Positions 3,507 to 28,169 are shown, counted from the stretch's first letter. The stretch is 32,000 nucleotides of DNA from Thermodesulfobacteriota bacterium (GCA_026625185.1 CP113000.1:1275622-1307621); one strand, 5' to 3'. Numbers and translations are program-made. The notes: generated from the sequence alone by a model not told the origin.

Positions 3507-4823
3507 TTAGCGTGCTTCTCTCAAAAGTCCCTGGATGGTGAGAGCCTTCCCCTCGTCTAAGGGAAGGTACTCATAGAACTCCTTTTTGCTATGAATGGAC
3601 GAATATCCGTCCATCAACGAATAATGACTCTTCAGAGCATCGGCAAAGAGGTACCCGAATAAATGATGGAAGCCCAGAGGATTGACCCCTAAAGCGAGGT
3701 AGCCATTAGATCTCCACAATCTACCTGCCTGGTCATAGTTTTCGCCCCAAAAGATCATGAAGGAGCCGGGAGTTTCTTCTAACGGTACGGCATTAGTATA
3801 AAGTACCCGCTTGCTGTAAACATAGTCGGGATTGTTCATGCTGACCTCCCAGATCCACACGGGACGGATTTCCAGCTTTTCCGGAAAACCCACGCCGGTT
3901 TTTTTCATGTCGTACTTTGGCCTCATGTCCGGGTTTTCTTCCATCCAGCCGGAAGTAAACTGGGGGTAGAACATTTCGCGCTGCGCTACCATCCTGCAAG
4001 TCTGCTCAGGGGTGATCTTCTGCTGCCAGACCTGGAAATCATCGGGAATAGCGTCGCTCCCAAGAAGAGGATCGGTCAAATCTCCACCGGTGAGGCGGCG
4101 TATTCTTTTCAAAGCCGGTATATAGGAGAAGACGTCATCGGGCTTAGTCATGCTCCAAAACTTGTGCCGCAAGAGAATGAAGCCCCGGACGTCCTGCGGC
4201 TCGGTAATCATAATGGTCCCTTTAAATACGATACCATCCTTTGTATAGGGCTCCAGGTTTCCAAAGGGCGGCATTTCTACTCTATTCAAGTACCTGCGCT
4301 CCTGATTGATCCAGGTAAACCGCTTCTGGTATCTGTTCTTATCAAACAAGTTGAACGCCGCATAAAACCTATGGTCATCATGGCCCCCAGCGGTCCGATT
4401 GTACAGGGTATAAGAATTCCACAGAAGCTCGGAAGCGTTTTTGGGATGGGGAAAGGGATTGCCGCCCTGCCAGTTCAAAAGCTCTTGCGTCTTAGGGTCT
4501 ATGCTCGCTGTTCCCTGGTGCTTGAGGCTGGCTTCTCTCCAAGCAGAAGAAACCCCCGGGTATTTTTTAGAATACTCCACGATGGGTATGGTTATCCCTC
4601 CTTCCTTCACTCCAAACTCATTATAAATGAGTTTGGAGGGGGGAAGCAACTTTTTAAGCTCCGGAAGGTATTGATCCCAGTTATCTTTGGTGATTACCAG
4701 TCCCGGTTTAATCGGCCCCTGGTATTTTTCCAGAGGGGGCATTTGAGCAAAAAGACCGGTCCCGCTGAAGCCGATCACCAGGAATACGGTGAAAATAAAT
4801 AGTATGACTTTTTTATTCCTCAT
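3507..4823 (-). CDS. DUF1329-family periplasmic/outer-membrane-associated protein (LolA-like 'lipoprotein-sorting' fold family)
   Basis: The 438-aa ORF has an SD (AAGGAG-N6-ATG) and a signal peptide (...FSGTGLFAQ). The soluble body is rich in aromatic residues. The N-terminal pattern KPGLVITKDNWDQYLPELKKLLPP and the adjacency to a DUF1302-type barrel match what I recall for DUF1329. Confidence 0.7.
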   Translation of the reverse strand: MRNKKVILFIFTVFLVIGFSGTGLFAQMPPLEKYQGPIKPGLVITKDNWDQYLPELKKLLPPSKLIYNEFGVKEGGITIPIVEYSKKYPGVSSAWREASLKHQGTASIDPKTQELLNWQGGNPFPHPKNASELLWNSYTLYNRTAGGHDDHRFYAAFNLFDKNRYQKRFTWINQERRYLNRVEMPPFGNLEPYTKDGIVFKGTIMITEPQDVRGFILLRHKFWSMTKPDDVFSYIPALKRIRRLTGGDLTDPLLGSDAIPDDFQVWQQKITPEQTCRMVAQREMFYPQFTSGWMEENPDMRPKYDMKKTGVGFPEKLEIRPVWIWEVSMNNPDYVYSKRVLYTNAVPLEETPGSFMIFWGENYDQAGRLWRSNGYLALGVNPLGFHHLFGYLFADALKSHYSLMDGYSSIHSKKEFYEYLPLDEGKALTIQGLLREAR

Positions 4824-4874
4824 TTAAATCTCCTTTCGCTTTTTGCATTCACTTCTTTTAGGAACCCTCTCTTT

Positions 4875-6362
4875 TTAAAAGAGATACTTTATCTGAAGGT
4901 AAAACTCATCCTTGTGATTCATGACATTAAAAGGAAGTCGGAGACTATGACCTTGAAATATCAGGGCCCCGATCTCCGGACGCCAATGATCGCCATATTT
5001 AAACGTCACCCTCGGTTTCATGTACCAACCACTATTAGTGATATCATATACCACTAAACAATCAGGACTAATCCGGGCGTTGCGGTAGTCAGTATTAACC
5101 TTTAAACTTACAAAGTTGGTACTTTGATTCAGCTTCTGGTTGTAAGGGCCTTCAACCAGACCCCATTCGTGGTCAAAGGTCCAGAAGTTAAAAAACTGCC
5201 CACTGAAGCTAATCATCTGCTCCGGATTGAGCCAACGCATCCACGCCTTGGCATCAAAACCCACCATGGAGTGGAGACGAGCTCTTCTGGTTACCATATC
5301 CGAATGCTTGGCTTGATTTAGGCTGCCTACCGGCTCATCAGGGTACATGGCAAACTCCCCCCGGAGAATAAAGAGGTTGCCCAAACTCTTATTGAAAGTG
5401 AAGCCGACGATGTTCATGGAATAATATCGCTGGATCAAGTTAAGCATTATCAAATCCGGGGGCCGCCCACCAGGATCGGGTATGGGAGTGGGACCGCCGG
5501 GCCCCATCCACAGCGCGGTATCCCCATGGAATTCGGTGGAAGGATTGTGGTTAAAGCCATGAAAGTAGTTGAGGGTCATAAACCATCCCCCGACTTCTAT
5601 TCCCATGCGCGCACCGTAACTGCTGCTATCGAAGCTGTAACGGGTTTTCTTGTGTTCTTGGATAACCGGGATCACGGGCGCTCCCCAGGGAGTAAAGGTA
5701 AGCGTAGGAAGGGGAATGGACCAGGGGCCATTAGAGTTAGGCGCCTTCACCGGATCTCCGAGATCAAGCAAGTCCTTCTTGAAATCCGGAGTCCACACCC
5801 ACTCTACAAACCAATTTCTTACTGGATCTATATCATAGATGGCCCTAACGGCAGTCAAAGGTCGACGGATCTCTGACCAATCCCGGGTATTAAACTGGCG
5901 GCGCATATCCAATGGATTGATGATGTCCATAAGCCTGACCCCATCGCTCTCGCCCCAGACAATCTGTTGCAGCCCCAGCTTAAGGGTCAGCTTATTCAAT
6001 ACTAACACCCCATACATTTCTCGCAACTTGTTTTCTTCATCTAAAGTATCCCCACTGCCTTCATATTGATCCCAGTAATTTCCACCATCCCGAATATCCC
6101 ACACATGATCGTAGAGAGATCTCCAAGACCCATAAAAACTCAGATTGGGAGAAAATTTATAATCCGCGTCGATTCGTAAAGTGTTTTCAAAAGATACCAG
6201 CCCCGCACCTCCAAGACGGAAGGAGGACTGGTTTTGGAGGTAGCCATCAACCCACAATTTATTGTCCAAAAAGGAAAACCGACCATAGGTGGGAGCGGCC
6301 TGGGAAAAAATGGCCACTCCACCTAAAAGAAAAATCAGGATAAGCTTTAACTTCTTTTTCAT
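4875..6362 (-). CDS. DUF1302-family outer-membrane beta-barrel protein
   Basis: The 495-aa ORF has a signal peptide (MKKKLKLILIFLLGGVAIFSQA) and an alternating amphipathic beta-strand pattern. The C-terminus ...FYLQIKYLF ends in Phe, an OMP sorting signature. It is paired with DUF1329. Confidence 0.7.
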   Translation of the reverse strand: MKKKLKLILIFLLGGVAIFSQAAPTYGRFSFLDNKLWVDGYLQNQSSFRLGGAGLVSFENTLRIDADYKFSPNLSFYGSWRSLYDHVWDIRDGGNYWDQYEGSGDTLDEENKLREMYGVLVLNKLTLKLGLQQIVWGESDGVRLMDIINPLDMRRQFNTRDWSEIRRPLTAVRAIYDIDPVRNWFVEWVWTPDFKKDLLDLGDPVKAPNSNGPWSIPLPTLTFTPWGAPVIPVIQEHKKTRYSFDSSSYGARMGIEVGGWFMTLNYFHGFNHNPSTEFHGDTALWMGPGGPTPIPDPGGRPPDLIMLNLIQRYYSMNIVGFTFNKSLGNLFILRGEFAMYPDEPVGSLNQAKHSDMVTRRARLHSMVGFDAKAWMRWLNPEQMISFSGQFFNFWTFDHEWGLVEGPYNQKLNQSTNFVSLKVNTDYRNARISPDCLVVYDITNSGWYMKPRVTFKYGDHWRPEIGALIFQGHSLRLPFNVMNHKDEFYLQIKYLF

Positions 6363-6389
6363 TTGTTTCTTCCTCTCTGCTCAAAAAAC

Positions 6390-6634
6390 TAATTAGTTCA
6401 TCCTGAACAATACGTTCTTTTGATGGAAATTGTTCTTTGAAAACCGAATAGAATTGTGAAATAGGGACCTCCTTGTCTGCCGACAGGCAGGCTATAGTGC
6501 TTTTCCAATGCCTCATGCAAACTGTCCCGGTCAATAAGATTGGCAGCACGCATGAGCTCGTGGTCAGAATCTAATTGATCCGAAAAGATTAACTCAAACA
6601 TCGGAAGTTGCCATTCCGCTATTTTGATTGACAT
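6390..6634 (-). pseudogene. Frameshifted, truncated N-terminal remnant of an IS5-like (DUF772-type) transposase
   Basis: The minus-strand frame gives MSIKIAEWQLPMFELIFSDQLDSDHELMRAANLIDRDSLHEALEKHYSLPVGRQ. This follows the DUF772 N-terminal pattern QLxlFE...L..DHxLr....lIDw..l.e.l...YS..GRp. Homology then appears to continue in another frame (..VPISQFYSVFKEQFPSKERIVQDEL..). No DDE catalytic domain follows. Confidence 0.4.
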
Positions 6635-6782
6635 TTCAATTTATTATATCATGAGATCATCAGAAAAACCGGAGGGTTTTTTGCAATTCTATTCAATTTT
6701 CAAAGAGCCGCTCAGTATTAATAAGGGTTTTAAAGCCTTTTTTCAGGGTGGACTAATTATTAAAAATTTTTTTCTATTTTTA

Positions 6783-9131
6783 CTAATTCTTATCACTTCC
6801 TTCCTCATCCCCTTTAACCTCTTTAAATAGTTTAGATCTAAAGCAATAGGTCAGTGTTGGTACCAGAAAGAGAGCTCCCACCACGTTTGCAGCAAGCAGA
6901 AAGGCAAGCAAAAACCCCATGTCCGCCTGAAACTTCACTTCACTGAAGTACCAAAAAACGATTCCCACTACCACTACAAGTCCGGTTACCACCACTGCCC
7001 GACCGGTGCTGGAAAAACTTCTGATGATGGATTGTTTGATGTCCCCTCCGGTCTCCTGCATTTCATTAATGATCCTGCTCAGCATGTAGATTCCATAGTC
7101 TATTCCTAATCCTGCTCCAATAGAAGCTACCGGTAAAATACTAATGGTCATTCCCATCCCGGCCAAAGCCATATAAGCTGAGGCGATCAGGTTGCCCGTA
7201 ATCAGGGAAATTATGAGGACAATCCCCCTTAGGAATGATCTATAGGGGATGACACAGCAAATGAAGATGATTAAAAGGGCCAGGACCAAGGTGAGCGTAC
7301 TATATTGCGCTACCGTCTCATCGATGCTCGCGGTCACTCCTATGATTCCTCCAGCCAACTTTAATTCCACATGTTCGCTGGGGATAGGGTATCGGGTCAG
7401 GAAATCTTTGCAGACCTGGATCGCATGTCTTATGGTCTCCCCCTGGTGATCCTTAAAATAACAAATGAGATTCCCATGTTGGAAAGGAATGTCGGCCCAA
7501 CGATCAAAGTCTCCCGGTTCACCTTTTACCTCATAGGCCCATAAATAAAAACCACACTCATCCGGAGTGGCGGGAATTTTACTCCATTTGGGATCACCCT
7601 CATGGTATTCCCGGTTAAGCTTTTTTACGATCCCCACCAATGTTTCCGTCCCCCCCACAGAAGGGCACTTACCCTGAAACTCCCGCTCCAGGGCTTCGAT
7701 TGCTCGAAGTACTTCAGGTTCCTTCAAAGCATTCCGGTGCTTGCCTTCAATAATTATGTAAAGGGGATTTGTTCCCGGGAAGTGACGGTTGAGAACGGCA
7801 TCCTGGGAGTTATAAGGAGAATCCGGCCACAAAAGGGGTGAGCCTGGATGAACATCTCCTACCTCAACCCGCATAGACAAGGTAGAGGATGCGACAAAAA
7901 CAACCAGCCAACCCCCCATAACCATCACCATGTTTCTCCTGCCCGCCATAAGCCATTCTCCCCACTTAGTAAGAGCGTTAGTCAGAAAATCTGTCTTTTC
8001 TATCTTTTTGAGGGGGGAGGGTAGATAACAAAAGAGAATGGGAAGCAGCAGACTTACACCAAGAACTGCACCCAAAAGCCAGGTGCCCGAGATCCAACCT
8101 AAAGTCCTCAGTAAAGGAATGGGAACAACGCAAAGGATATAAAGGCCGGCTGCGTCGGTAATGATAGATGCAGCCGAGGGAATGAACATGATATTTATGG
8201 TAGCTATCGAGGCCTCCTCTCTATCTTTAATTGTTTGGCAATATTCTCCGTATCTATCAAGTATCTGCACTCCGTGGCTGATGATCCTGGCCACGATCAC
8301 AAAGGGGATAACCAGTCCCAAGGGGTCGAGATTGAATCTGGCCAAACCCATTAACCCCAGACCCCAGATTGTGTTTATCAAAGCGAGTAATAGGGGCAGG
8401 CAAACAAAAATCCCCCGATATTGATTGAGAAATATGAAAAGGAGGGCAAGTTCGGCCAATACACTTGCCACGAAGATCAGCAGTGATTTTGGATTGTTAT
8501 GATATATCCACCCTATGAGCATGGGCTTTCCCGAGATATAAAACTCTAAATCTTTTCCTGCTACGTCAGTCTGTAATTTTTCAAAGAAATTGAACAATTT
8601 CCGGTAATTGATTTCATCCTTGAAGGTCGCAACAATGAAGGCCATTTTACCATCACCGGAAACCAAAGAACCCCTTATCAACTCATTACTGAAGACACTC
8701 TCCTTTAGTTGCTCTATTTCTTCAGGCCTCTTTGGAACCCCCATTTTATAAAACGGCCTTACATCTACCCCTGCCGGAGTCCCTTCGATATTTTTTACCT
8801 TCGCCCTGCTGAGGGAGATTACCTGGGAAGTTATGGCATCAGGATAAAACATAATCTTTTCCGTTAGCACCTTGAGCTTCTCTAAGAACTGAGGTTGGAA
8901 AATATCCCCTTCCCTTGGCTTAAGGCCAATAATAGTGGTATTAGCACCTCCAAAGAGCTGTTGAAACTTGAGGTGGATCTTTACGTAGGGGTGATTCTGA
9001 GGCAAGGTGCTTTCAAAGGAGGTTGAAAAACTTAAATATCTGATCTGGTAACCGAGGTAAAGGGTAATAAAGAAACTTATGGCCACAAAAAACAAACGGT
9101 GTTTTATAACCAACCTATAAAATTTCACCAT
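6783..9131 (-). CDS. RND-superfamily (MMPL/HpnN-like) inner-membrane exporter
   Basis: The ORF shows two blocks of about six TM helices separated by large periplasmic loops (for example LLIFVASVLAELALLFIFL..., LVLALLIIFICCVIPY...). I moved the start from the track's TTG at 9164 to ATG 9131, which has a perfect SD (TAAGGAGG-N6-ATG). This gives 782 aa. Confidence 0.85.
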   Translation of the reverse strand: MVKFYRLVIKHRLFFVAISFFITLYLGYQIRYLSFSTSFESTLPQNHPYVKIHLKFQQLFGGANTTIIGLKPREGDIFQPQFLEKLKVLTEKIMFYPDAITSQVISLSRAKVKNIEGTPAGVDVRPFYKMGVPKRPEEIEQLKESVFSNELIRGSLVSGDGKMAFIVATFKDEINYRKLFNFFEKLQTDVAGKDLEFYISGKPMLIGWIYHNNPKSLLIFVASVLAELALLFIFLNQYRGIFVCLPLLLALINTIWGLGLMGLARFNLDPLGLVIPFVIVARIISHGVQILDRYGEYCQTIKDREEASIATINIMFIPSAASIITDAAGLYILCVVPIPLLRTLGWISGTWLLGAVLGVSLLLPILFCYLPSPLKKIEKTDFLTNALTKWGEWLMAGRRNMVMVMGGWLVVFVASSTLSMRVEVGDVHPGSPLLWPDSPYNSQDAVLNRHFPGTNPLYIIIEGKHRNALKEPEVLRAIEALEREFQGKCPSVGGTETLVGIVKKLNREYHEGDPKWSKIPATPDECGFYLWAYEVKGEPGDFDRWADIPFQHGNLICYFKDHQGETIRHAIQVCKDFLTRYPIPSEHVELKLAGGIIGVTASIDETVAQYSTLTLVLALLIIFICCVIPYRSFLRGIVLIISLITGNLIASAYMALAGMGMTISILPVASIGAGLGIDYGIYMLSRIINEMQETGGDIKQSIIRSFSSTGRAVVVTGLVVVVGIVFWYFSEVKFQADMGFLLAFLLAANVVGALFLVPTLTYCFRSKLFKEVKGDEEGSDKN

Positions 9132-9219
9132 CTGTGTCCTCCTTAAAATAGCAGTAACGTGCAACCCAATTCAAAATTCCACCTCATTGTCTCACGAAAG
9201 AATAAAAGGCGCGTAACAT

Positions 9220-10248
9220 TTATCTGAAAATGCTACAGGTAAGAGTTTTTGGGTTTACCGTGAGAATTTTACCTGCTTCGCCCACGACAAAAATCTTTTC
9301 GCTGCCGGCTGATGCAATCCCTTCAAACCAATTGACCCCTATTGACTTCGGAAGACACACCTTCGACCAGTGGCCTCTATAATCAGTCATTGAAAGAACT
9401 GTTCCCTTTAACCCTACCACATAAGCACAGCCGTCAATGAACTTGACCTTAAGAAGGCTGGCGCCGGCTCCGCTACCGCTATCTATCTCTTCCCACGTTG
9501 TCCCGCCGTCGAAACTTCTCAACGAATATCCACTCATTCCCACAGCTATTCCCACTCTACCATCATCCGTAAAATCAATGCTGTTGAGGCTCGGGTGGGA
9601 AGCCTCAAGCTTCTCTACGTCTAAAGTCCTCTCTTCCCCCATAACCCTCTTAAAAGTTACCCCTCCATCCTCGGTCAAGATAATGGTGCCGAACTCTCCC
9701 ACAACAAAGCCCTTTTTAGAATCAAGGAATTTCACATCCTTCAGGACCAATTCCTCACCAGTAGACAGAACTTCCCAACTCTTACCACCATCGGCGGTAC
9801 GGAGGATGGTATGCGATTGCCCGACCGCCCATCCTTCCAAACGGTTGAGAAAACAGACCGCGCTGAGGTCATTTCCCGTGCCGCTTATTTGCTTTCTCCA
9901 GGTCTTGCCGCCATCTGAAGTTGAAAGAATTACTCCTTGAGTTCCCACGATCCACCCATAGTCTGCATCCCCAAAAGTAACTGCGGTTAAAAGTTCCTTG
10001 GTGCCGCTTTCTTGTAATTTCCAGGTTTCTCCTTCATCAGGGCTATAGAGAATAGTCCCGTAATATCCCACTGTATACCCGTGCCTCTCCACAAAACAGA
10101 CATCGTACAGGGAATCCCCGATTGAGCTTTGTCTTCCCCTCTCACCTACCTCCGTCTTTTTTGCATTAGGAAGCATTGAATGGCTGATGATTACGAGCCC
10201 CAACAAGAATCCTATGACCATTACCCATTTATGGATCACTCTTGTCAT
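9220..10248 (-). CDS. BNR/Asp-box beta-propeller protein (Ycf48/Hcf136-like), membrane-anchored or secreted
   Basis: The 342-aa ORF has an SD (AAAGGAGAG-N5-ATG) and an N-terminal hydrophobic anchor. It contains repeated SxDxGxTW Asp-box motifs: SPDEGETW, STSDGGKTW, RTADGGKSW, TEDGGVTF and SFDGGTTW. Confidence 0.8.
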   Translation of the reverse strand: MTRVIHKWVMVIGFLLGLVIISHSMLPNAKKTEVGERGRQSSIGDSLYDVCFVERHGYTVGYYGTILYSPDEGETWKLQESGTKELLTAVTFGDADYGWIVGTQGVILSTSDGGKTWRKQISGTGNDLSAVCFLNRLEGWAVGQSHTILRTADGGKSWEVLSTGEELVLKDVKFLDSKKGFVVGEFGTIILTEDGGVTFKRVMGEERTLDVEKLEASHPSLNSIDFTDDGRVGIAVGMSGYSLRSFDGGTTWEEIDSGSGAGASLLKVKFIDGCAYVVGLKGTVLSMTDYRGHWSKVCLPKSIGVNWFEGIASAGSEKIFVVGEAGKILTVNPKTLTCSIFR

Positions 10249-10405
10249 TTCTTCTCTCCTTTTCTTTTGGAATGAGGCAAAATAATACCCTGAAATTCAA
10301 GTCGATGCAGGTCCTTTTTCTTTACAACTAATTGATACTTTATTGTTTTTATCCTAATTTTAATAAAACGTTGGGACACTACTGGCTTACAATAAAAAAA
10401 AAAGC

Positions 10406-10434
10406 TTGACAATTAAAATTATGATAGCTATATT
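10406..10434 (+). promoter_or_regulatory. Sigma70-type promoter, repeat copy 1 (TTGACA-N17-TATATT)
   Basis: The -35 hexamer TTGACA is at 10406-10411 and the -10 hexamer TATATT at 10429-10434, separated by a 17-nt spacer. An A10 run lies immediately upstream in the UP-element position. Confidence 0.55.
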
Positions 10435-10532
10435 GTGATTAAATTGTGAATACGGCCTTTGACCAAAATAAAAGCAAAAGTTTAAAGTCAAAACCGATTT
10501 TCCTATAACAACGGTAAGCGAGAAAAAAAGGC

Positions 10533-10561
10533 TTGACAAGTAAAATTATGATAGCCATATT
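10533..10561 (+). promoter_or_regulatory. Sigma70-type promoter, repeat copy 2 (TTGACA-N17-CATATT)
   Basis: The -35 hexamer TTGACA is at 10533-10538 and the -10 hexamer CATATT at 10556-10561, separated by a 17-nt spacer. An A-run lies upstream. Confidence 0.5.
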
Positions 10562-10658
10562 GTGATTAAATTGTGAATACGGCCTTTGACCAAAATAAAA
10601 GCAAAAGTTTAAATTCAAAAAGGATTTTCATATAACAACGGCAAGGGCGAAAAAAAGC

Positions 10659-10687
10659 TTGACAAGTAAAATTATGATAGCTATATT
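10659..10687 (+). promoter_or_regulatory. Sigma70-type promoter, repeat copy 3, proximal promoter of the bam operon (TTGACA-N17-TATATT)
   Basis: The -35 hexamer TTGACA is at 10659-10664 and the -10 hexamer TATATT at 10682-10687. The predicted TSS is near 10694, which leaves a ~130-nt leader before the bamB ATG at 10825. Confidence 0.65.
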
Positions 10688-10723
10688 GTAATTAAATTGT
10701 GAGTACATTTTAAGCAATTTCAA

Positions 10724-10744
10724 CCTCTATCCGACGGGTGGAGG
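10724..10744 (+). promoter_or_regulatory. Leader stem-loop in the bamB 5' UTR
   Basis: CCTCTATCC-GAC-GGGTGGAGG forms a 9-bp stem (two G.U pairs) with a 3-nt loop. The 3' arm contains a GGAGG SD-like sequence. Confidence 0.3.
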
Positions 10745-10824
10745 AGTTATTGCGGTATGTGTGAGTAATTAATGTTTAGTCAAAAAGTATTTCGCGTGAT
10801 TCAGATAAGAAAGAAGGGAAAAAA

Positions 10825-12789
10825 ATGAGGTACTCAGAGACAGGGTTTAATTTAGAAATTGACCTATCCCGGGGAAACATTGAGAGGGTTGAAACCGACC
10901 CACGATTAACCGAGCTTTATCTGGGGGGTCTCGGTACTAACGCCAAGATATTATGGGATAGGGTTCCCCCAGAAACTGATCCCTTTTCGCCTGACGCTCC
11001 CCTGATTTTCAGTTCAGGCCTTTTAGGCGGCACAATTGCTCCCGGCGCTAATCGCACCATTATTACTGCTTACTCCCCTCAGACTCTTCTAATGGGATTT
11101 TCAATGATGGGGGGATTTTTTGCGCCGGAAATGAAGTATGCCGGATATGACAAAATCATTTTTCGCGGCAAGTCCCCCGATCTGGTCTATTTGTGGATAA
11201 ATAATGACAAAGTAGAAATACGTGATGCCGCTCATCTCCGTGGTAAAGGCGCTGTTGAAACTCAAGACATTATACGGAAGGAGTTGAATCAGCCGAGCGC
11301 CCATGTGGCTGCTATCGGTCTGGCCGGTGAAAACCGGGTCTATACGGCTTCCATCGAGCAGGGCAGGTCCAGCGCCAGCCGGCTCGGATTAGGAGCTGTG
11401 ATGGGAGACAAAGGGATAAAGGCGATAGCTGTTCGTGGGACAAATGACATCAATATTGCTCGGCCGGATGAATTTATAAAGCTTTGCAACGAAGTGCTGG
11501 AATATATAAAATTCCGAAACGCGAATCCGGTTCCGAACATAATGACCATTTTACAGGGGCTTGGTTCACCTCAAGAGATGGTGGAGACTGATGAGAAATG
11601 GCACACCGAGAATTTCAGTTGGGGAAATTCCCGCATTCGTAGAAAAGACTTCTGGACCAAGGAAATTGAAGAGAGATGGAAGAGTGTTCAATTAGATGTG
11701 CGGAAGCGGTTAATTAGCTGCTACAACTGTCCGATGAAATGCGGGGCAATAATTGCCGTCCCGGGACTTTCGATCTATATGATGAAATGCTTCACAAAAC
11801 TAACCTATACAATGGGAGCTTTAGTAGACGACCTGGATTTTGGTTTTAGAATCTCTCAACGCGCTGCGGAATATGGAGTGGACGGATTTTCAACCCCGCA
11901 AATTATGGCCTTCGGCTTCGAGCTTAAAGAAGCCGGCATTTTGACTGACGCGGATTTTGAAGGATGCCCTTCCGATAACGAGGGAAGATTTTACTGGCTC
12001 CTTGACAGAATTGTCCGGCGGGAAGGGATAGGAGATATCCTGGCTGATGGCACGCATTGGGCGGCCAAAAAGATCGGTAAGGGAGCAGAAGCGTACGTTC
12101 ACAACAATATCAAGAAGCATGAGCAGCTGCCTCTTAAGCTTGGAATGCTGAACCCCGTCTATTACCTGATGTATGCCACCGGCGAGAAAGCAAACATAAC
12201 GCAGATTGAAGGGCAGTTCCCCCAGGCGCCTTTCATGACCATGGAGGAAAGAGAAGCATTTGTAAAGGATTGGTTCCAGGTTCCTGATGAAAAGTTTAAA
12301 CAATATGTTCTGGACTGGGAACCGCGGGGAGAGCACTCAAATCCATTGTACCCGACTGTTGACATGTCCGTTGACATTGTTGACTGGCAAGAAAAAATGC
12401 ATTACATTGATGACGCCCTCGGGGTGTGCGCCGGTTTGTCATCATTTCCTCTGAAGCCTCCTTATCATATGCACAATTACCCCCATTTTATCTCATCAGC
12501 GAGCGGGATTGATATGGATGAAACCGGACTAACGGAAGTATATAATAGGAACCGCAATCTGGTTAGAGCCATTAATGTGAGAAGAGGCATGAGGAGAGCC
12601 GATGAGGATCCGCCCGAAGACCATTGGAAGAAAAGATTCCCAGAGCTTGAAAAAAAGCTCCTGGATGCTTATTACAAATTTAAGGGGTGGGATGATGATG
12701 GTATCCCTACGAAAGAGACATTACAGAAATTGGATCTGGGCTACGTTGCCGAAGACTTAGAACAGAGAGGTATTATAAAAAATGGCTAA
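10825..12789 (+). CDS. bamB: Class II benzoyl-CoA reductase active-site subunit BamB (tungsten bis-pyranopterin enzyme, aldehyde:ferredoxin oxidoreductase family)
   Basis: The 654-aa ORF has an AOR-family N-terminus (MRYSETGFNLEIDLSRGNIERVETDP..LYLGGLGTNAKILWD) and the [4Fe-4S] motif LISCYNCPMKCG. Long stretches such as NNIKKHEQLPLKLGMLNPVYYLMY and GLSSFPLKPPYHMHNYP match what I recall of Geobacter BamB. It is followed by the full bamC-I set. Confidence 0.88.
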   Translation: MRYSETGFNLEIDLSRGNIERVETDPRLTELYLGGLGTNAKILWDRVPPETDPFSPDAPLIFSSGLLGGTIAPGANRTIITAYSPQTLLMGFSMMGGFFAPEMKYAGYDKIIFRGKSPDLVYLWINNDKVEIRDAAHLRGKGAVETQDIIRKELNQPSAHVAAIGLAGENRVYTASIEQGRSSASRLGLGAVMGDKGIKAIAVRGTNDINIARPDEFIKLCNEVLEYIKFRNANPVPNIMTILQGLGSPQEMVETDEKWHTENFSWGNSRIRRKDFWTKEIEERWKSVQLDVRKRLISCYNCPMKCGAIIAVPGLSIYMMKCFTKLTYTMGALVDDLDFGFRISQRAAEYGVDGFSTPQIMAFGFELKEAGILTDADFEGCPSDNEGRFYWLLDRIVRREGIGDILADGTHWAAKKIGKGAEAYVHNNIKKHEQLPLKLGMLNPVYYLMYATGEKANITQIEGQFPQAPFMTMEEREAFVKDWFQVPDEKFKQYVLDWEPRGEHSNPLYPTVDMSVDIVDWQEKMHYIDDALGVCAGLSSFPLKPPYHMHNYPHFISSASGIDMDETGLTEVYNRNRNLVRAINVRRGMRRADEDPPEDHWKKRFPELEKKLLDAYYKFKGWDDDGIPTKETLQKLDLGYVAEDLEQRGIIKNG

Positions 12790-15454: not shown

Positions 15455-18400
15455 GTGGAAAATGTAATAATGCTCAAAGAAAATATTCAAGAACTTGGTA
15501 AAACTCTTGGAGCCAATAGTGTTGGCGATGTCATGATTATAGGTGGAGGGATCAGCGGTATTCAAGCGTCTCTTGATCTTGCCAATGCGGGTTTTAAGGT
15601 TTACCTGGTTGAGAAAGCGCCGTCCATTGGGGGCCATATGGCCCAGCTTGACAAGACCTTTCCAACCAATGACTGCTCAATGTGAATACTTGCACCCAAA
15701 CTGGTCGAGGTCGGCCGGCATCCCAATGTAGAAGTCCTCACCTATACTGAAGTTGAGAGTGTAGCAGGGGAAGTAGGAAACTTTAAGGTAACCCTGGTTA
15801 AAAAGCCCAGGTATATTCTAGAGGACAAATGCACGGGCTGTACTACCTGTGTAGAGTACTGCCCGGTCAAATACCCTGATCAATATAATCAGGAAATATC
15901 GAAGAATAAGGCAGTCCATGTATATTTCGCTCAGGCGATTCCACTTATCACTTATATAGATGAAAGCTGTCTTTATCTTAAAGAGGGCAAATGTCGTATT
16001 TGCGAAGCAGTATGTAAGAATAAGGCGATAGATTTCAATCAAACGCCGGAAAAGGAAGAAGTAAGTGTAGGGGCGATCATTCTGGCTCCCGGCCTTGAGC
16101 CGTTTGATCCTAAGGTAAGGGAGGAATATCGGTACGGAGAGTTTCAGAACGTGGTAACCAGTATGGACTATGAGCGACTGTTATGCTCCACCGGACCATA
16201 CCAAGGTGAGATACTCCGTGCTTCCGACCTGAAGCATCCCCATAAAATAGCTTGGATTCAATGCGTCGGTTCCAGACAGGTTATCGAGGGCGGTAACAGC
16301 TATTGTTCAGCCGTATGCTGCACGTATACCCAGAAACAGGCGATTTTGACAAAGGATCATGATGCCGGGGCAGAGTGTGTAATATTTCATAATGATATTC
16401 GTTCCTATGGGAAGGATTTTGAGCGATTCTACGAAAGGACCGAGAAACTTCCCGGGGTTCGATTTATCAGGAGCTACACATCAATTGTTAAGGAGAACCC
16501 GGAAACCAAGAATGTCACCATACGGTATTCTACACCCGATGATGGAGTAAAAGAGGAAGAATTCGATATGGTGGTACTGTCCGTCGGATTGAATCCTCCT
16601 GCGGATGTATTGGACCTGGCAAAAAAATTCGGCATTAAACTAAATCCTCACGATTTTTGCAACCTCAATCCTGTCAATCCTATGGAGACCAACAGGCCTG
16701 GGATCTTTGTAAGCGGAGGTTTCCAGGGACCTATAGATATTCCCGAGTCGGTTTTCAGCGCCAGCGGGGCCAGCTCCCAAATTGGTGAGCTTCTTGACTA
16801 CCGGCGAGGAATTCTTTCCAAAGAAAGGATCTATCCGCCGGAAAGGGATGTCTCCAAAGAGGATCCAAGGATAGGGGTCTTTGTGTGTCATTGTGGGGCT
16901 AATATCGGAAGGATAGTCAATGTTCCTGAAACAGTTGAATATTGCAAATCCTTACCCAATGTTGTCTACGCCCAGGAGCAGCTGTTTTCCTGCGCTACTA
17001 ATTCCGCCAAAGAAATAACGGACATGATCAAAGAAAAAGGGCTCAATCGAGTGATTGTCGCCGCCTGCTCGCCCAGGACCCTTGAGCCGCTATTCCGGGA
17101 TACTGTTCGGGAGGCAGGAATCAATCAATACTACTTTGAAATGGCAAACATTAGGGAGCATAACTCCTGGGTCCACTCGAAAGAAAAGGAAGAAGCCTCC
17201 GAAAAGGCACATGATATAATCCGGATGTCGGTAGCGCGAGCCTGCCATTTGGAGCCATTACAGGAATTTGATCTACCGGTCAACAAGGCGGCGTTAGTGG
17301 TTGGAGGAGGGATAGCCGGCATGACTAGTGCTCTCTCCATAGCCAACCAGGGGCATGAGGTTCACCTGCTGGAAAAGGATACAGAGCTTGGGGGAATAGC
17401 ACGGAGAATTCATGATACGCTGGAAGGACTGGATGTTCAGGCGTATTTGCGCGATCTGATAAGAAAGGTATATCAACACCCTTTAATACATGTATATCAT
17501 GATACCACCATCACCGGGGCGACAGGTTATGTGGGAAATTTCGTAACCAAGGTGAAGTCTGACAGAGGAGTCACAGAGATAAAACATGGCGCATCCGTCA
17601 TCGCAATAGGGGTTGATGTATATAAACCTGCCGAATACCTTTATGGAGAAGACGACCGGGTCTTGACCCATCTCGAGTTGGAGGAACAGATCACCAAAGG
17701 AAACGAAAAGGTGATTAACGCAGAAAGTCTCGTGATGATACAATGCGTGGGCTGCAGAAATGAGGAGAGAAATTATTGCAGCAGGCTGTGCTGCAGCGAG
17801 TCGGTCAAAAACGCTTTGAAACTGAAAAAAATAAACCCCAAAATGAATATTTACATCCTCTTTCGGGATATAAGAACATATGGATTCAAAGAGGATTATT
17901 ACCGGGAAGCTGCGGATAAAGATGTAAAGTTCATTCGCTATGAACCGGAAGATCCACCGGAGGTGAAAGCTGTTAAAGATGGCGGTAAGAGCATTCTAAA
18001 GGTTTCCTTGCCGGATTATATTTTAGGGCAGAAGCTTGAAATAGATGCGGATATCATTTCCCTGGCCGCCGCTGTTGTTCCTTCTTCAGCCACCAAGGAG
18101 GTCGCCGGATTATTCAAGGTGACTTTGAGCCCGGATGGCTTCTTCAAAGAAGCCCATGTTAAATTAAGACCGGTTGAGTTTGCTACCGACGGCGTTTACC
18201 TTTGTGGATTGGCCCACTATCCTAAGTTTATGCAGGAAACGATTAACCAGGCTTATGGAGCTGCTGGCCGGGCCTTAACGCTTTTGTCACACGATATCGT
18301 CATCGCCTCCGGCTCGGTTTGCGGGGTGGATGAGAATAGGTGTGTTTCATGCGGGGCATGTATCACCGTTTGCACCTATGGCGCCATAGAGTTTTATGAT

Positions 18401-18583
18401 ACCCCCCAGGGCAGAAAGGCCAGGGTTAACCCGGTTCTCTGCAAAGGAGATGGTCTTTGTAACACGGTGTGTCCGACAGCGGCTATTTCACTAAAGCACT
18501 TTACCGATGAAGAGATCTTGAGCCAAATTGATGCGGCGGTTCCGGAGGAAGAGATCATACAAAAAATTGAGGCTGCCGCCTGA
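15455..18583 (+). CDS. bamE: BamE, HdrA-like flavo-iron-sulfur selenoprotein; in-frame TGA 15683-15685 read as selenocysteine
   Basis: The start GTG 15455 is preceded by AAGGTGA-N6. The frame is open from 15455 to 18583 apart from one TGA. I translated 15686-16150 by hand and found no stop ([23 protein letters not shown]...[12 protein letters not shown]...[15 protein letters not shown]...[12 protein letters not shown]). The track ORFs 15455-15685 and 16151-18583 are in the same frame. The TGA lies in [14 protein letters not shown], a position I recall as Cys or Sec in HdrA. There are two FAD GxGxxG modules ([17 protein letters not shown] and [17 protein letters not shown]). The product is 1042 aa. 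Confidence 0.85.
15701..15718 (+). other. Candidate bacterial SECIS hairpin for the bamE UGA
   Basis: The hairpin begins 15 nt after the UGA. It reads CUGGUC-GAGGUC-GGCCGG, a 6-bp stem with two G.U pairs. The apical loop contains GGUC, the loop sequence I recall from the E. coli fdhF SECIS. Confidence 0.45.
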
Positions 18584-18653: not shown

Positions 18654-19421
18654 ATGATTTCAGGACTCAAATTTAAGCCAAGATTAATAGGTTTCGTATG
18701 CCACTGGTGAGCATACGGGGCTGCTGACCTGGCTGGAGTTTCCAGACTGCAATATACCACTGAAATGAGGCTTATTCGCGTCATGTGCACCGGCAGAGTC
18801 GACTTGGAACATGTACTCCGGGCTTTCTCGAAGGGAGTGGATGGGGTATTTATTGGCGCCTGCCATCTAAATGAATGTAACTATATTACTCATGGCAACT
18901 ACCATGCATTAACCATGGTGAATATATGTAAAAAAATAATGGAAAACATTGGCCTGAATCCTGAAAGATTAAGGATCCGATTCATGTCCGGCGCTGAAGC
19001 AAGCCTTTTTGTAGAATCTGTTAATGAGTTTGTCAAGACGGTGAAGGAAATAGGCCCCCTTGGCAAAGTCGAAGGAATAAACAAGAATGCATTAAAGGCC
19101 AAGCTTGAGGCCGTGACACAGCTAGTCCCCTACATCAGGTTGGTGGAAAGGGAGAGGCTGCGATTACCTTTTAAATCGGAAGAAGAATATAATAATTTTT
19201 TCACCAGTGACGAATTCAACAAGTTATTTAATGAGTTAATTGTAGAAAAATTGGCAATAAGCCAAATAACCTCACTCTTGCGGGAAAGACCCCTTTCGGC
19301 TGGTAAAATCTCTGAATATTTAGGCCTAGCCCCGTCTGAGGTTTCAAGATACATGAATACTTCATCAAGGCAGGGATTAGTCAGGTATGATGAAGGCCGC
19401 AATTGCTTCGCTCTTGCCTAA
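18654..19421 (+). CDS. bamF: BamF, MvhD-like [2Fe-2S] selenoprotein with C-terminal winged-helix-like extension; TGA 18708-18710 read as selenocysteine
   Basis: The start ATG 18654 has a strong SD (AAGGAGG at 18638-18644). It is in frame with the track ORF that starts at 18765. The N-terminus reads MISGLKFKPRLIGFVCHW-U-AYGAADLAGVSRLQYTTEMRLIRVMCTGRVD. This aligns with the MvhD motif FCCNWCSYAGADLAG, with Sec at the last Cys. The product is 255 aa. Confidence 0.82.
18728..18745 (+). other. Candidate bacterial SECIS hairpin for the bamF UGA
   Basis: The hairpin lies 18-35 nt after the UGA. One fold is CUGGA-GUU-UCCAG (18733-18745). An alternative fold pairs CUGG (18729-18732) with CCAG (18742-18745) and leaves a 9-nt loop containing GG and GU. 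Confidence 0.4.
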
Positions 19422-27520: not shown

Positions 27521-27549
27521 TTGACAGAGGTTATTTTTTCTTTTATCAT
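27521..27549 (+). promoter_or_regulatory. Sigma70-type promoter for the DUF4416-yicC-remA-gmk unit (TTGACA-N17-TATCAT)
   Basis: The -35 hexamer TTGACA is at 27521-27526 and the -10 hexamer TATCAT at 27544-27549, with a 17-nt spacer. An unusually U-rich ~70-nt leader follows. Confidence 0.55.
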
Positions 27550-27626
27550 CTAAAAAACCTGCTGGGGCCGCCTGCGGGACGATTTTTAAAAGAAAATTTT
27601 TTATTTTTTATTTTTTTTGTTTTTCT

Positions 27627-28169
27627 GTGGGAATTCCAGCTTTTCCTGTTCATGTTAAGCTTATTGCCAGCATAATCTGCCAGAAAGAAGGCACTTTTTC
27701 GAGTGTCATCAAGGAAATGGTTAGCCATTTTGGTTCTCTTGATTTTGTCAGCGCAACCATGCCCTTTGATTTTACTGATTATTATATTGAGGAGATGGGA
27801 AAAAACCTTTGGCGGAGGATCGTGGGGTTTGAAACCTTAATACATCCGGAAACGCTTTCCTCAATCAAGCTGTTGACCAATACTCTGGAAAAATCGTTTT
27901 CCCCTGATCCCCAAAAACGGACGGTGAATATTGACCCTGGGTATATGAACCGGTATCACTTAATTTTAGCCACAACCAAACCAGCGCCTCACCGCCCTTA
28001 TCTCAAGGATGGCATTTATGCGGATTTGACGTTAATCTACCAGGAAAAAGATTTTAAAAACCTCCCCTGGACCTATCCTGATTATGGGTCAGCGGGTATA
28101 AAGGCGATTCTGAAGGAACTTCGTCAAAAATACCTTTTTCAATTAAAAAGCTTTAGGAAAGGCTCTTGA
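27627..28169 (+). CDS. DUF4416-family protein (function unknown)
   Basis: The 180-aa ORF starts at GTG. The motif pattern NIDPGYMNRYHLILATTKPAPHRPYL.DGIYADLTLIY....F..LPWTYPDY matches my recollection of DUF4416. Its stop overlaps the yicC start (TGATG). Confidence 0.6.
   Translation: MGIPAFPVHVKLIASIICQKEGTFSSVIKEMVSHFGSLDFVSATMPFDFTDYYIEEMGKNLWRRIVGFETLIHPETLSSIKLLTNTLEKSFSPDPQKRTVNIDPGYMNRYHLILATTKPAPHRPYLKDGIYADLTLIYQEKDFKNLPWTYPDYGSAGIKAILKELRQKYLFQLKSFRKGS

Follow-up and report, generated by a model that had tools for sequence, protein, structure and literature searches.

The gene encoding the tungsten-containing active-site subunit of class II benzoyl-CoA reductase (bamB) of strain ORM2a is preceded by a genuine tandem array of three sigma70-type promoters. 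Judged from sequence divergence, this array is old, and it probably constitutes, at a moderate level of confidence, a 5' control module that gives additive and poorly repressible transcription of bamB. It was found in a 32-kb stretch of DNA (further referred to as the window) from the closed genome of ORM2a (CP113000.1; 3,300,546 bp), a member of the Desulfobacterota proposed as 'Ca. Anaerobenzenivorax', which is responsible for benzene fermentation in the methanogenic consortium OR/DGG-B and has been described as a strict benzene specialist. The following features were distinguished, with positions counted from the start of the window:

9220-10248, minus strand: divergent YCF48-related gene (WAC08760.1), first of a YCF48-MMPL-DUF1302-DUF1329 cluster
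10305-10393, plus strand: possible relic ('copy 0') with a T-run, TTTACA (10311-10316), a decayed operator and a tail ending in TGGCTTACAAT
10394-10523, plus strand: copy 1, delimited by repeat finding, alignment and promoter scan
10394-10434, plus strand: promoter elements of copy 1, namely A-run (10394-10403), -35 TTGACA (10406-10411), 17-bp spacer and -10 TATATT (10429-10434)
10419-10449: degenerate operator of copy 1, namely TTATGAT (10419-10425), AGCT (10426-10429), ATTGTGA (10432-10438) and a second ATTGTGA (10443-10449)
~10441, plus strand: predicted transcription start of copy 1
10453-10523, plus strand: tail X1, including a weak TTGACC-18-TAAAGT
10524-10650, plus strand: copy 2, with -35 TTGACA (10533-10538) and -10 CATATT (10556-10561; first base T>C)
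~10568, plus strand: predicted transcription start of copy 2
10580-10650, plus strand: tail X2, with AAGGGCG at its 3' end, then an A-run
10651-10706, plus strand: copy 3, the proximal promoter, with -35 TTGACA (10659-10664) and -10 TATATT (10682-10687)
~10694, plus strand: predicted transcription start of copy 3
10694-10824, plus strand: bamB leader, ~131 nt from promoter 3
10724-10744, plus strand: leader hairpin CCTCTATCC-GAC-GGGTGGAGG
10813-10818, plus strand: Shine-Dalgarno sequence GAAGGG of the leader, followed by an A-run and ATG
10825-12789, plus strand: bamB

The open reading frame at 10825-12789 was assigned to BamB on the basis of a full-length match with PDB 4Z3W (1120 bits) and the presence of the AFOR_N and AFOR_C domains. 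Its product was exactly WAC08761.1, encoded on the same contig as WAC08760.1 and WAC08756.1 (DUF1329). The gene heads the operon bamBCD-fdhD-bamE..., in which bamB is followed by bamC-like, bamD-like, fdhD, HdrA-like bamE, and NuoE/F-like genes. Two cluster members, P0124 and P0125, considered as BamB N-termini, were ruled out as unrelated 40-aa fragments. In a published proteome, BamB accounted for 80 spectra, placing it equal 26th, and BamD, BamE, and BamH were abundant too (PMC13101534).

Tandem Repeats Finder reported the region 10397-10706 as a repeat with a period of 127, 2.5 copies, 92% matches, and a score of 534, being the sole long-period repeat of the window. This confirms the tandem triplication of a promoter upstream of bamB that the first-pass annotation had described. 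The three copies aligned cleanly until ...GAGTAC (10706). Their qualification as nearly identical was too strong, as they shared 89-95% identity (5-11% differences). The promoter cores matched at 54 of 57 positions between copies 1 and 2 as well as between copies 1 and 3, and at 53 of 57 between copies 2 and 3; the X tails of copies 1 and 2 matched at 62 of 70. A sigma70 consensus scan retrieved TTGACA-17-TATATT at 10406-10434 and 10659-10687 (11/12 each) and TTGACA-17-CATATT at 10533-10561 (10/12). Hence, the hexamers already proposed, including CATATT in copy 2, were recovered at 10406, 10533, and 10659, all with a 17-bp spacer. The same scan found the weaker sites claimed for copies 1 and 2, TTGACC-18-TAAAGT at 10459 and TTGACC-18-TAAATT at 10586. 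Overall, the array region contained 10 promoter-like sites, compared with 2.7 +/- 1.6 in shuffled sequences. Additional to the first reading were minus-strand sites and a degenerate palindromic operator in each unit. The former consisted of TTCACA-18-TATCAT in copies 1 and 2 (10/12) and CTCACA-18-TATCAT in copy 3 (9/12), the minus-strand -10 abutting the sense -10 in each copy. Further, A-runs were present at -47 to -38 of every promoter copy. The proposed UP-element position of these A-runs thus stood, as they occupy the site of the proximal subsite (~-46 to -38), at which UP elements contact the alpha C-terminal domain of RNA polymerase and where relatives have a T-run. Both strands of the 32 kb contained three 11/12 sigma70 matches, two of them inside the array. 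The third one (TTGACA-17-TATCAT at 27521) had a T-rich low-complexity stretch (27596-27628) 3' of it, directly upstream of a DUF4416 gene (27627-28169) and a YicC-like gene.

The array is genuine and not an assembly artefact. Indeed, the intergenic region of L001, a contig from the hybrid assembly of DGG0 paired-end and PacBio reads, was identical to that of the window. Similarly, two short-read contigs of the 2016 DGG-1A sample, L172 ending at 10611 and L002 starting at 10557, matched at 100% and overlapped by 55 nt in copy 2, thereby jointly rebuilding an identical array. Copies 1 and 2 have an exact repeat of 57 nt in common (10430-10486 = 10557-10613), which encloses the 55-nt overlap, so that a de Bruijn graph is expected to break at that point. 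In addition, ten positions distinguished copy 1 from copy 2, which argues against an artefactual duplication, and these copy-specific variants were reproduced in L001, L172, and L002. This agreement of three assemblies from two DNA samples establishes the three copies and excludes the artefact that had initially been considered as an alternative.

Each unit consisted of a 57-bp promoter core and a 70-nt tail X. Alignment of X2 with the 3' end of the bamB leader gave a score of 35, against a null of 19.1 +/- 3.6 that reached this score in 1 of 1000 shuffles. In particular, ...TTCATATAACAACGGCAAGGGCG-A7 of X2 matched ...TTCAGATAAGAAAGAAGGG-A7-ATG of the leader, through the Shine-Dalgarno sequence and the A-run. 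This indicates that the duplicated segment began with the promoter and stopped directly ahead of the start codon. Judged by this alignment, X is decayed leader, a 70-nt relic, and the A-run is the former spacer between Shine-Dalgarno sequence and ATG. The A-run would hence owe its UP-element position to an origin in the duplicated leader. Likewise, the bamB leader had been called unique, which holds insofar as only copy 3 retains a working leader; the X tails of copies 1 and 2 represent its decayed 3' end. The array thus probably arose by head-to-tail duplication of this segment, Shine-Dalgarno sequence and A-run before ATG included, upon which the leader of the two upstream units shrank to the 70-nt X and a working leader persisted in the third unit alone. 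The leader had a fold energy of -35 kcal/mol (z = -2.5) and was 85% identical between ORM2a and ORM2b, with a U-G pair of the hairpin replaced by C-G in ORM2b.

A fourth, decayed copy is possible at 10305-10393. The end of its tail, TGGCTTACAAT, resembles the end of the unit tail X, and in ORM2b the end of the upstream region plus A-run aligned with the X end plus A-run. Local alignment of this 'copy 0' with the ORM2b proximal promoter scored 39 (null 29.6 +/- 4.8); as 48 of 1000 shuffles reached this score, the relic is only suggestive. A DNA search of 82 related loci for the unit, the leader, and the upstream region retrieved none outside ORM2, except for a 23-nt core in L026 and weak leader matches. 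Similarly, no further unit copies, as expected for a MITE-like dispersal, were found elsewhere in the 32-kb window or in 170 loci outside ORM2.

The closest BamB relatives (96% identity), found by protein search and exact look-ups, were located on ORM2 and BDMC contigs of the same culture lineage. BamB scans of genomes and metagenomes returned, among the matches listed, relatives of at most 86% identity. As ORM2a and ORM2b have an ANI of about 90% (PMC13101534), the contigs with a 96%-identity BamB fit ORM2b. Comparison of the bamB upstream region across relatives, as had been recommended, showed that ORM2b contains copy 1 and the decayed start of copy 2. The order in ORM2b was upstream region, distal promoter P1, X, an insert Y of ~175 bp, proximal promoter P', leader, and bamB. 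P1-X was orthologous to copy 1 of ORM2a (core 53/57, X 62/70). The 37 nt 3' of X corresponded to a decayed X end, an A-run, and a promoter start, with a period of 126 and 73% identity (E = 0.001); this middle copy had decayed to TTTAAC, without a -10 element. This decayed second unit at a period of 126 indicates that at least two tandem units existed before ORM2a and ORM2b split. Moreover, the ORM2a copies are as diverged mutually as from their ORM2b ortholog, by which measure the array is old; the recent unstable duplication that had been entertained does not agree with this divergence nor with the decayed second copy of ORM2b at the same period. Y gave no significant alignment with the unit or the leader. 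ORM2a would have lost both Y and P', with the join at a common ...TAC/AT... microhomology where the repeat similarity stops. A 45-aa open reading frame was called across X and Y of ORM2b (L164:2138-2275), which is probably not a gene, as both ORM2a units have ACG in place of its ATG and it has no convincing ribosome-binding site.

To assess how common such arrangements are, the 600 nt upstream of bamB were subjected to gapped self-comparison in 154 loci. Direct repeats occurred in nine of these, eight of which involved the promoter or the 5' end of bamB, namely those of ORM2a, ORM2b, L027, L045, L074, L088, L168, and L169. Three of the latter were as follows:

L027: three promoter copies at -428, -300, and -120 relative to bamB, carrying the palindrome GTGAATATATTCAC
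L168:1820-2000: 88%-identity outgroup, two promoter-plus-Shine-Dalgarno units 93 bp apart
L169:1790-2030: duplicated Shine-Dalgarno sequence and first 31 nt of bamB

A strict ungapped scan for duplicated promoters returned L027 and ORM2a alone. Hence, few bamB loci (~5%) have a duplicated 5' region, but such duplications recur, ORM2a being the clearest case, and the duplications in other lineages appear to be independent of that of ORM2a.

A conserved bamB promoter module, TTTTTTCTTGACAYRTAG-TTACRATRTAG/CTATATTGTAA, was found upstream of bamB in 14 of 153 other loci and in none of the shuffled controls. It was single-copy in many Desulfobacterota and Syntrophia MAGs. Its carriers included:

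L076:2707-2781 and L151:1718-1792: module with a perfect palindrome
L113, L114, L130, L134, L143, L146, L159, L021, L026, and L046: module
L164:2324-2398: module in ORM2b, at the proximal promoter

In an alignment of 21 modules from many lineages, the -35 columns were at least 90% conserved, the -10 region was conserved, and the spacer was fixed at 17 bp, which provides comparative evidence for a real promoter. A 22-bp AGCT-centred palindrome (TTACAATATAG/CTATATTGTAA) spanned the spacer and the -10 element, a layout that looks like that of a putative repressor operator, and an extra ATTGTRA half-site ~11 bp downstream of the palindrome recurred in many lineages. Symmetry of the palindrome amounted to 6-11 of 11 positions in 17 canonical promoters (8/11 in the ORM2b proximal promoter), compared with 4-5 of 11 in all three ORM2a copies and the distal one of ORM2b, in which the left arm is displaced by 2 bp towards the centre. 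The ORM2a copies share TTGACA, the 17-bp spacer, TATATT, the AGCT centre, and the ATTGTRA right arm with the canonical single-copy module. They differ from it in being triplicated, in having an A-run upstream where the canonical module has a T-run, and in their left palindrome arm (TTATGAT), which is degenerate and lies 2 bp nearer to the centre in all copies. Consequently, an inverted TTACRAT and ATTGTAA in canonical register was absent from ORM2a copies 1-3. No other palindrome module was present in the 32-kb window. No DNA-binding regulator was recognised beside the operator-bearing loci, whose neighbours vary; the sole recurrent neighbour was a GNAT acetyltransferase gene with a small DUF2080-like open reading frame. 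A description of the palindrome was not found in the literature searched, which named only BamVW and BgeR, both from Geobacter, as bam regulators. Apart from this module, many bamB leaders elsewhere shared a ACATGAACAAC motif (L005, L010, L013, L014, L016, L017, L024, L027, L029, and L033), whose ATG was fixed 32 nt before the bamB start codon in some leaders. Many such leaders had a GCAGC-N-GCTGC hairpin directly upstream of the Shine-Dalgarno sequence. Both motif and hairpin, absent from ORM2a, may represent a conserved leader element.

With respect to function, the array seems best read as promoter amplification for an enzyme needed in bulk. All three sigma70 promoters have remained near consensus, with an optimal spacer of 17 bp and with an A-tract where a proximal UP element would lie; the copies are spaced by 127 and 126 bp. 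Such distances leave room for three polymerases simultaneously and correspond to about 12 helical turns. A terminator scan found no intrinsic terminator on either strand of the array region, so that all three promoters should fire into bamBCD-fdhD-bamE...; the predicted mRNA leaders would measure ~131, 257, and 384 nt and the transcripts would sum. Less firmly, the degenerate operator in each ORM2a copy, which appears crippled judging by its geometry, and the lost canonical proximal promoter may result in weak repression. This obligate benzene specialist may hence express bamB in a largely constitutive manner. Promoter amplification would fit the high abundance of the Bam proteins as well as the gains obtained with engineered tandem promoters. 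Against it, the -10 of copy 2 (CATATT) lacks the T conserved at the first position, a promoter can be occluded by its upstream neighbour, stability may decrease with leader length, and the minus-strand sites (10/12 or 9/12) could cause competition or antisense transcription. A more far-reaching scenario, which is unlikely, is that ORM2a escaped bam repression by deletion of the canonical proximal promoter still present in ORM2b, leaving three operator-crippled copies. Constitutive high expression would then help ORM2a to outgrow ORM2b in the consortium fed with benzene, and the palindrome would mark a bam master repressor in obligate anaerobes.

Alternatively, the array may be real but a neutral relic, in which the upstream units add little, being weak, occluded, or burdened with unproductive long leaders, and which recombination has not yet removed. 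The identity between ORM2a and ORM2b across this region (89-93%) is near the ANI of ~90%, so that purifying selection on the extra copies leaves no clear signal, and the divergence between the copies equals this background, with no extra constraint visible. Also in line with idle units are the weakening of the copy 2 -10 element to CATATT, the nature of X as a decaying leader without a consistent fold, and the situation in ORM2b, of which the middle copy decayed to TTTAAC without a -10 element and BamB was still detected (PMC13101534). The latter strain thus manages with one decayed middle copy, indicating that three copies are not essential. However, the -35 hexamer is intact in all three copies, and copies 1 and 3 also retain the -10 element and the 17-bp spacing in the face of ~10% background divergence. 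Furthermore, the 57-nt perfect repeat should permit deletion, yet the 2016 and 2017 samples are identical, and comparable duplications recur in other lineages. Neutral persistence is an unlikely option.

It is rather improbable that the array serves to sharpen the switching of bamB instead of maximising its output, through cooperative binding or looping between three sets of regulator sites on one helical face, each made up of a half palindrome and two ATTGTGA direct repeats 11 bp apart. The conservation in relatives of operator-like elements over the -10, the ATTGTRA half-site ~11 bp downstream in many lineages, and the spacing of 127 and 126 bp (~12 helical turns) would suit such a role. In contrast, the palindrome is degenerate in every ORM2a copy (4-5 of 11), no regulator gene is conserved beside operator-bearing loci, and a strict benzene specialist has little reason for a sharper switch.

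Similarly, there is but a slim chance that the units are bidirectional, with the minus-strand TTCACA-18-TATCAT firing too and copy 1 mainly serving the divergent YCF48-MMPL-DUF1302-DUF1329 cluster, which would be compatible with promoter amplification. The minus-strand sites score 10/12 (copies 1 and 2) and 9/12 (copy 3), the consensus scan returned no other promoter-like sites in 10249-10396, the ATTGTGA repeat supplying the minus-strand -35 is specific to this promoter type, and the YCF48 gene of contig L173 adjoins the same distal promoter. Hence, TTCACA-18-TATCAT of copy 1 (10450 to 10421) may be a promoter of the divergent YCF48-related gene. Nevertheless, the distal promoter and X are kept in two ORM2b-like contexts with transposases in place of the divergent genes, the minus-strand sites, whose spacer is 18 bp and which lack an UP-like tract, are weaker, and the neighbouring MMPL protein (WAC08759.1) had no spectral count in the one supplementary table found.

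Finally, the suggestion that promoters 1 and 2 each launch a discrete functional RNA of ~100-127 nt (X), which draws on the position of X 3' of a strong promoter and its conservation between ORM2a and ORM2b (86-89%), can practically be dismissed: apart from the promoter, no attribute of a small-RNA gene was found, as terminators are absent on both strands, an Rfam scan of 9800-11200 gave no match at E <= 1, the fold of X2 (z = -2.46) differs from those of X1 (0.06) and the ORM2b X (0.13), X is recognisable as decayed leader, and it was not found outside ORM2 in the 82 related loci searched. The lack of a terminator, an Rfam family, and a consistent fold leads to the expectation of read-through into bamB instead of the short ~127-nt transcripts initially envisaged.

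The ORM2a array is a natural example of a known strategy of tandem or duplicated promoters and represents no new mechanism or principle. In Escherichia coli, the very highly expressed rRNA operons are preceded by the co-directional sigma70 promoters P1 and P2, ~120 bp apart and with A/T-rich upstream tracts. The array resembles this arrangement in having at least two co-directional sigma70 promoters with A/T-rich tracts in front of one operon. Yet, rrn P1 and P2 are not sequence duplicates and are regulated differently, whereas the ORM2a promoters are 93-95% identical paralogues in a true tandem repeat. Engineered clusters of core-tac promoters, which are head-to-tail copies of one sigma70 promoter like the ORM2a array, raise transcription in steps as copies are added, up to five (Li et al. 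2012, PMC3293061). They are synthetic and made of short identical units, whereas the array is natural, with diverged copies of 127 bp that carry a leader relic. In Bacteroides fragilis, a naturally duplicated promoter region has been proposed to enhance cfiA expression (PMC13509656). This concerns a recent clinical variant, with two copies in one isolate and a proposed effect without functional validation (PMC13509656), whereas the ORM2a array, with its three copies, is old and partly common to the sister strain. In eukaryotic rDNA intergenic spacers, too, duplicated core promoters form arrays ahead of a highly transcribed unit (PMC1215480). These differ from the ORM2a array in using RNA polymerase I, in their many copies, and in their enhancer-like role.

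The array thus offers a rare natural counterpart to engineered tandem promoters, in the key organism of the best-studied methanogenic benzene-degrading culture. As ORM2a is not genetically manipulable, sequence clues to the driving of its central dearomatising enzyme are useful. The array yields three predicted transcription starts that can be checked in metatranscriptomes, and the contrast with ORM2b, which has two intact promoters, one of them canonical, provides a ready-made reporter comparison. The conserved operator-like palindrome of bamB is a more useful by-product than the array itself, since its AGCT-centred sequence gives a handle on the regulator of class II benzoyl-CoA reductase in strict anaerobes.

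The gene neighbourhood displayed some further particularities. The divergent YCF48-MMPL-DUF1302-DUF1329 cluster (3507-10248, minus strand) is a second one, paralogous to the highly expressed 'Nanopod' cluster. On ORM2b-like contigs (L163:1-1887 and L164:1-1598), IS21-type or DDE transposases replace the YCF48 side. L173 encodes a 100% identical YCF48 protein beside a regulatory region of the ORM2b type, suggestive of a third strain or of inter-strain recombination. Within the bam operon, HdrA-like BamE (15470-18583, plus strand) contains an in-frame TGA (15683-15685) that is read through (...TNDCSM*ILAPK...). The protein probably contains selenocysteine, and automatic gene calling divides it into a fragment of 71 aa and an open reading frame further on. 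Further downstream, a 218-aa protein (18765-19421, plus strand) carries an MvhD/FlpD domain (E = 6e-32) and, at its C-terminus, an ArsR/IclR-type helix-turn-helix (E about 1e-5 to 1e-6). As a possible redox-linked DNA-binding protein, it is a candidate binder of the bamB operator.
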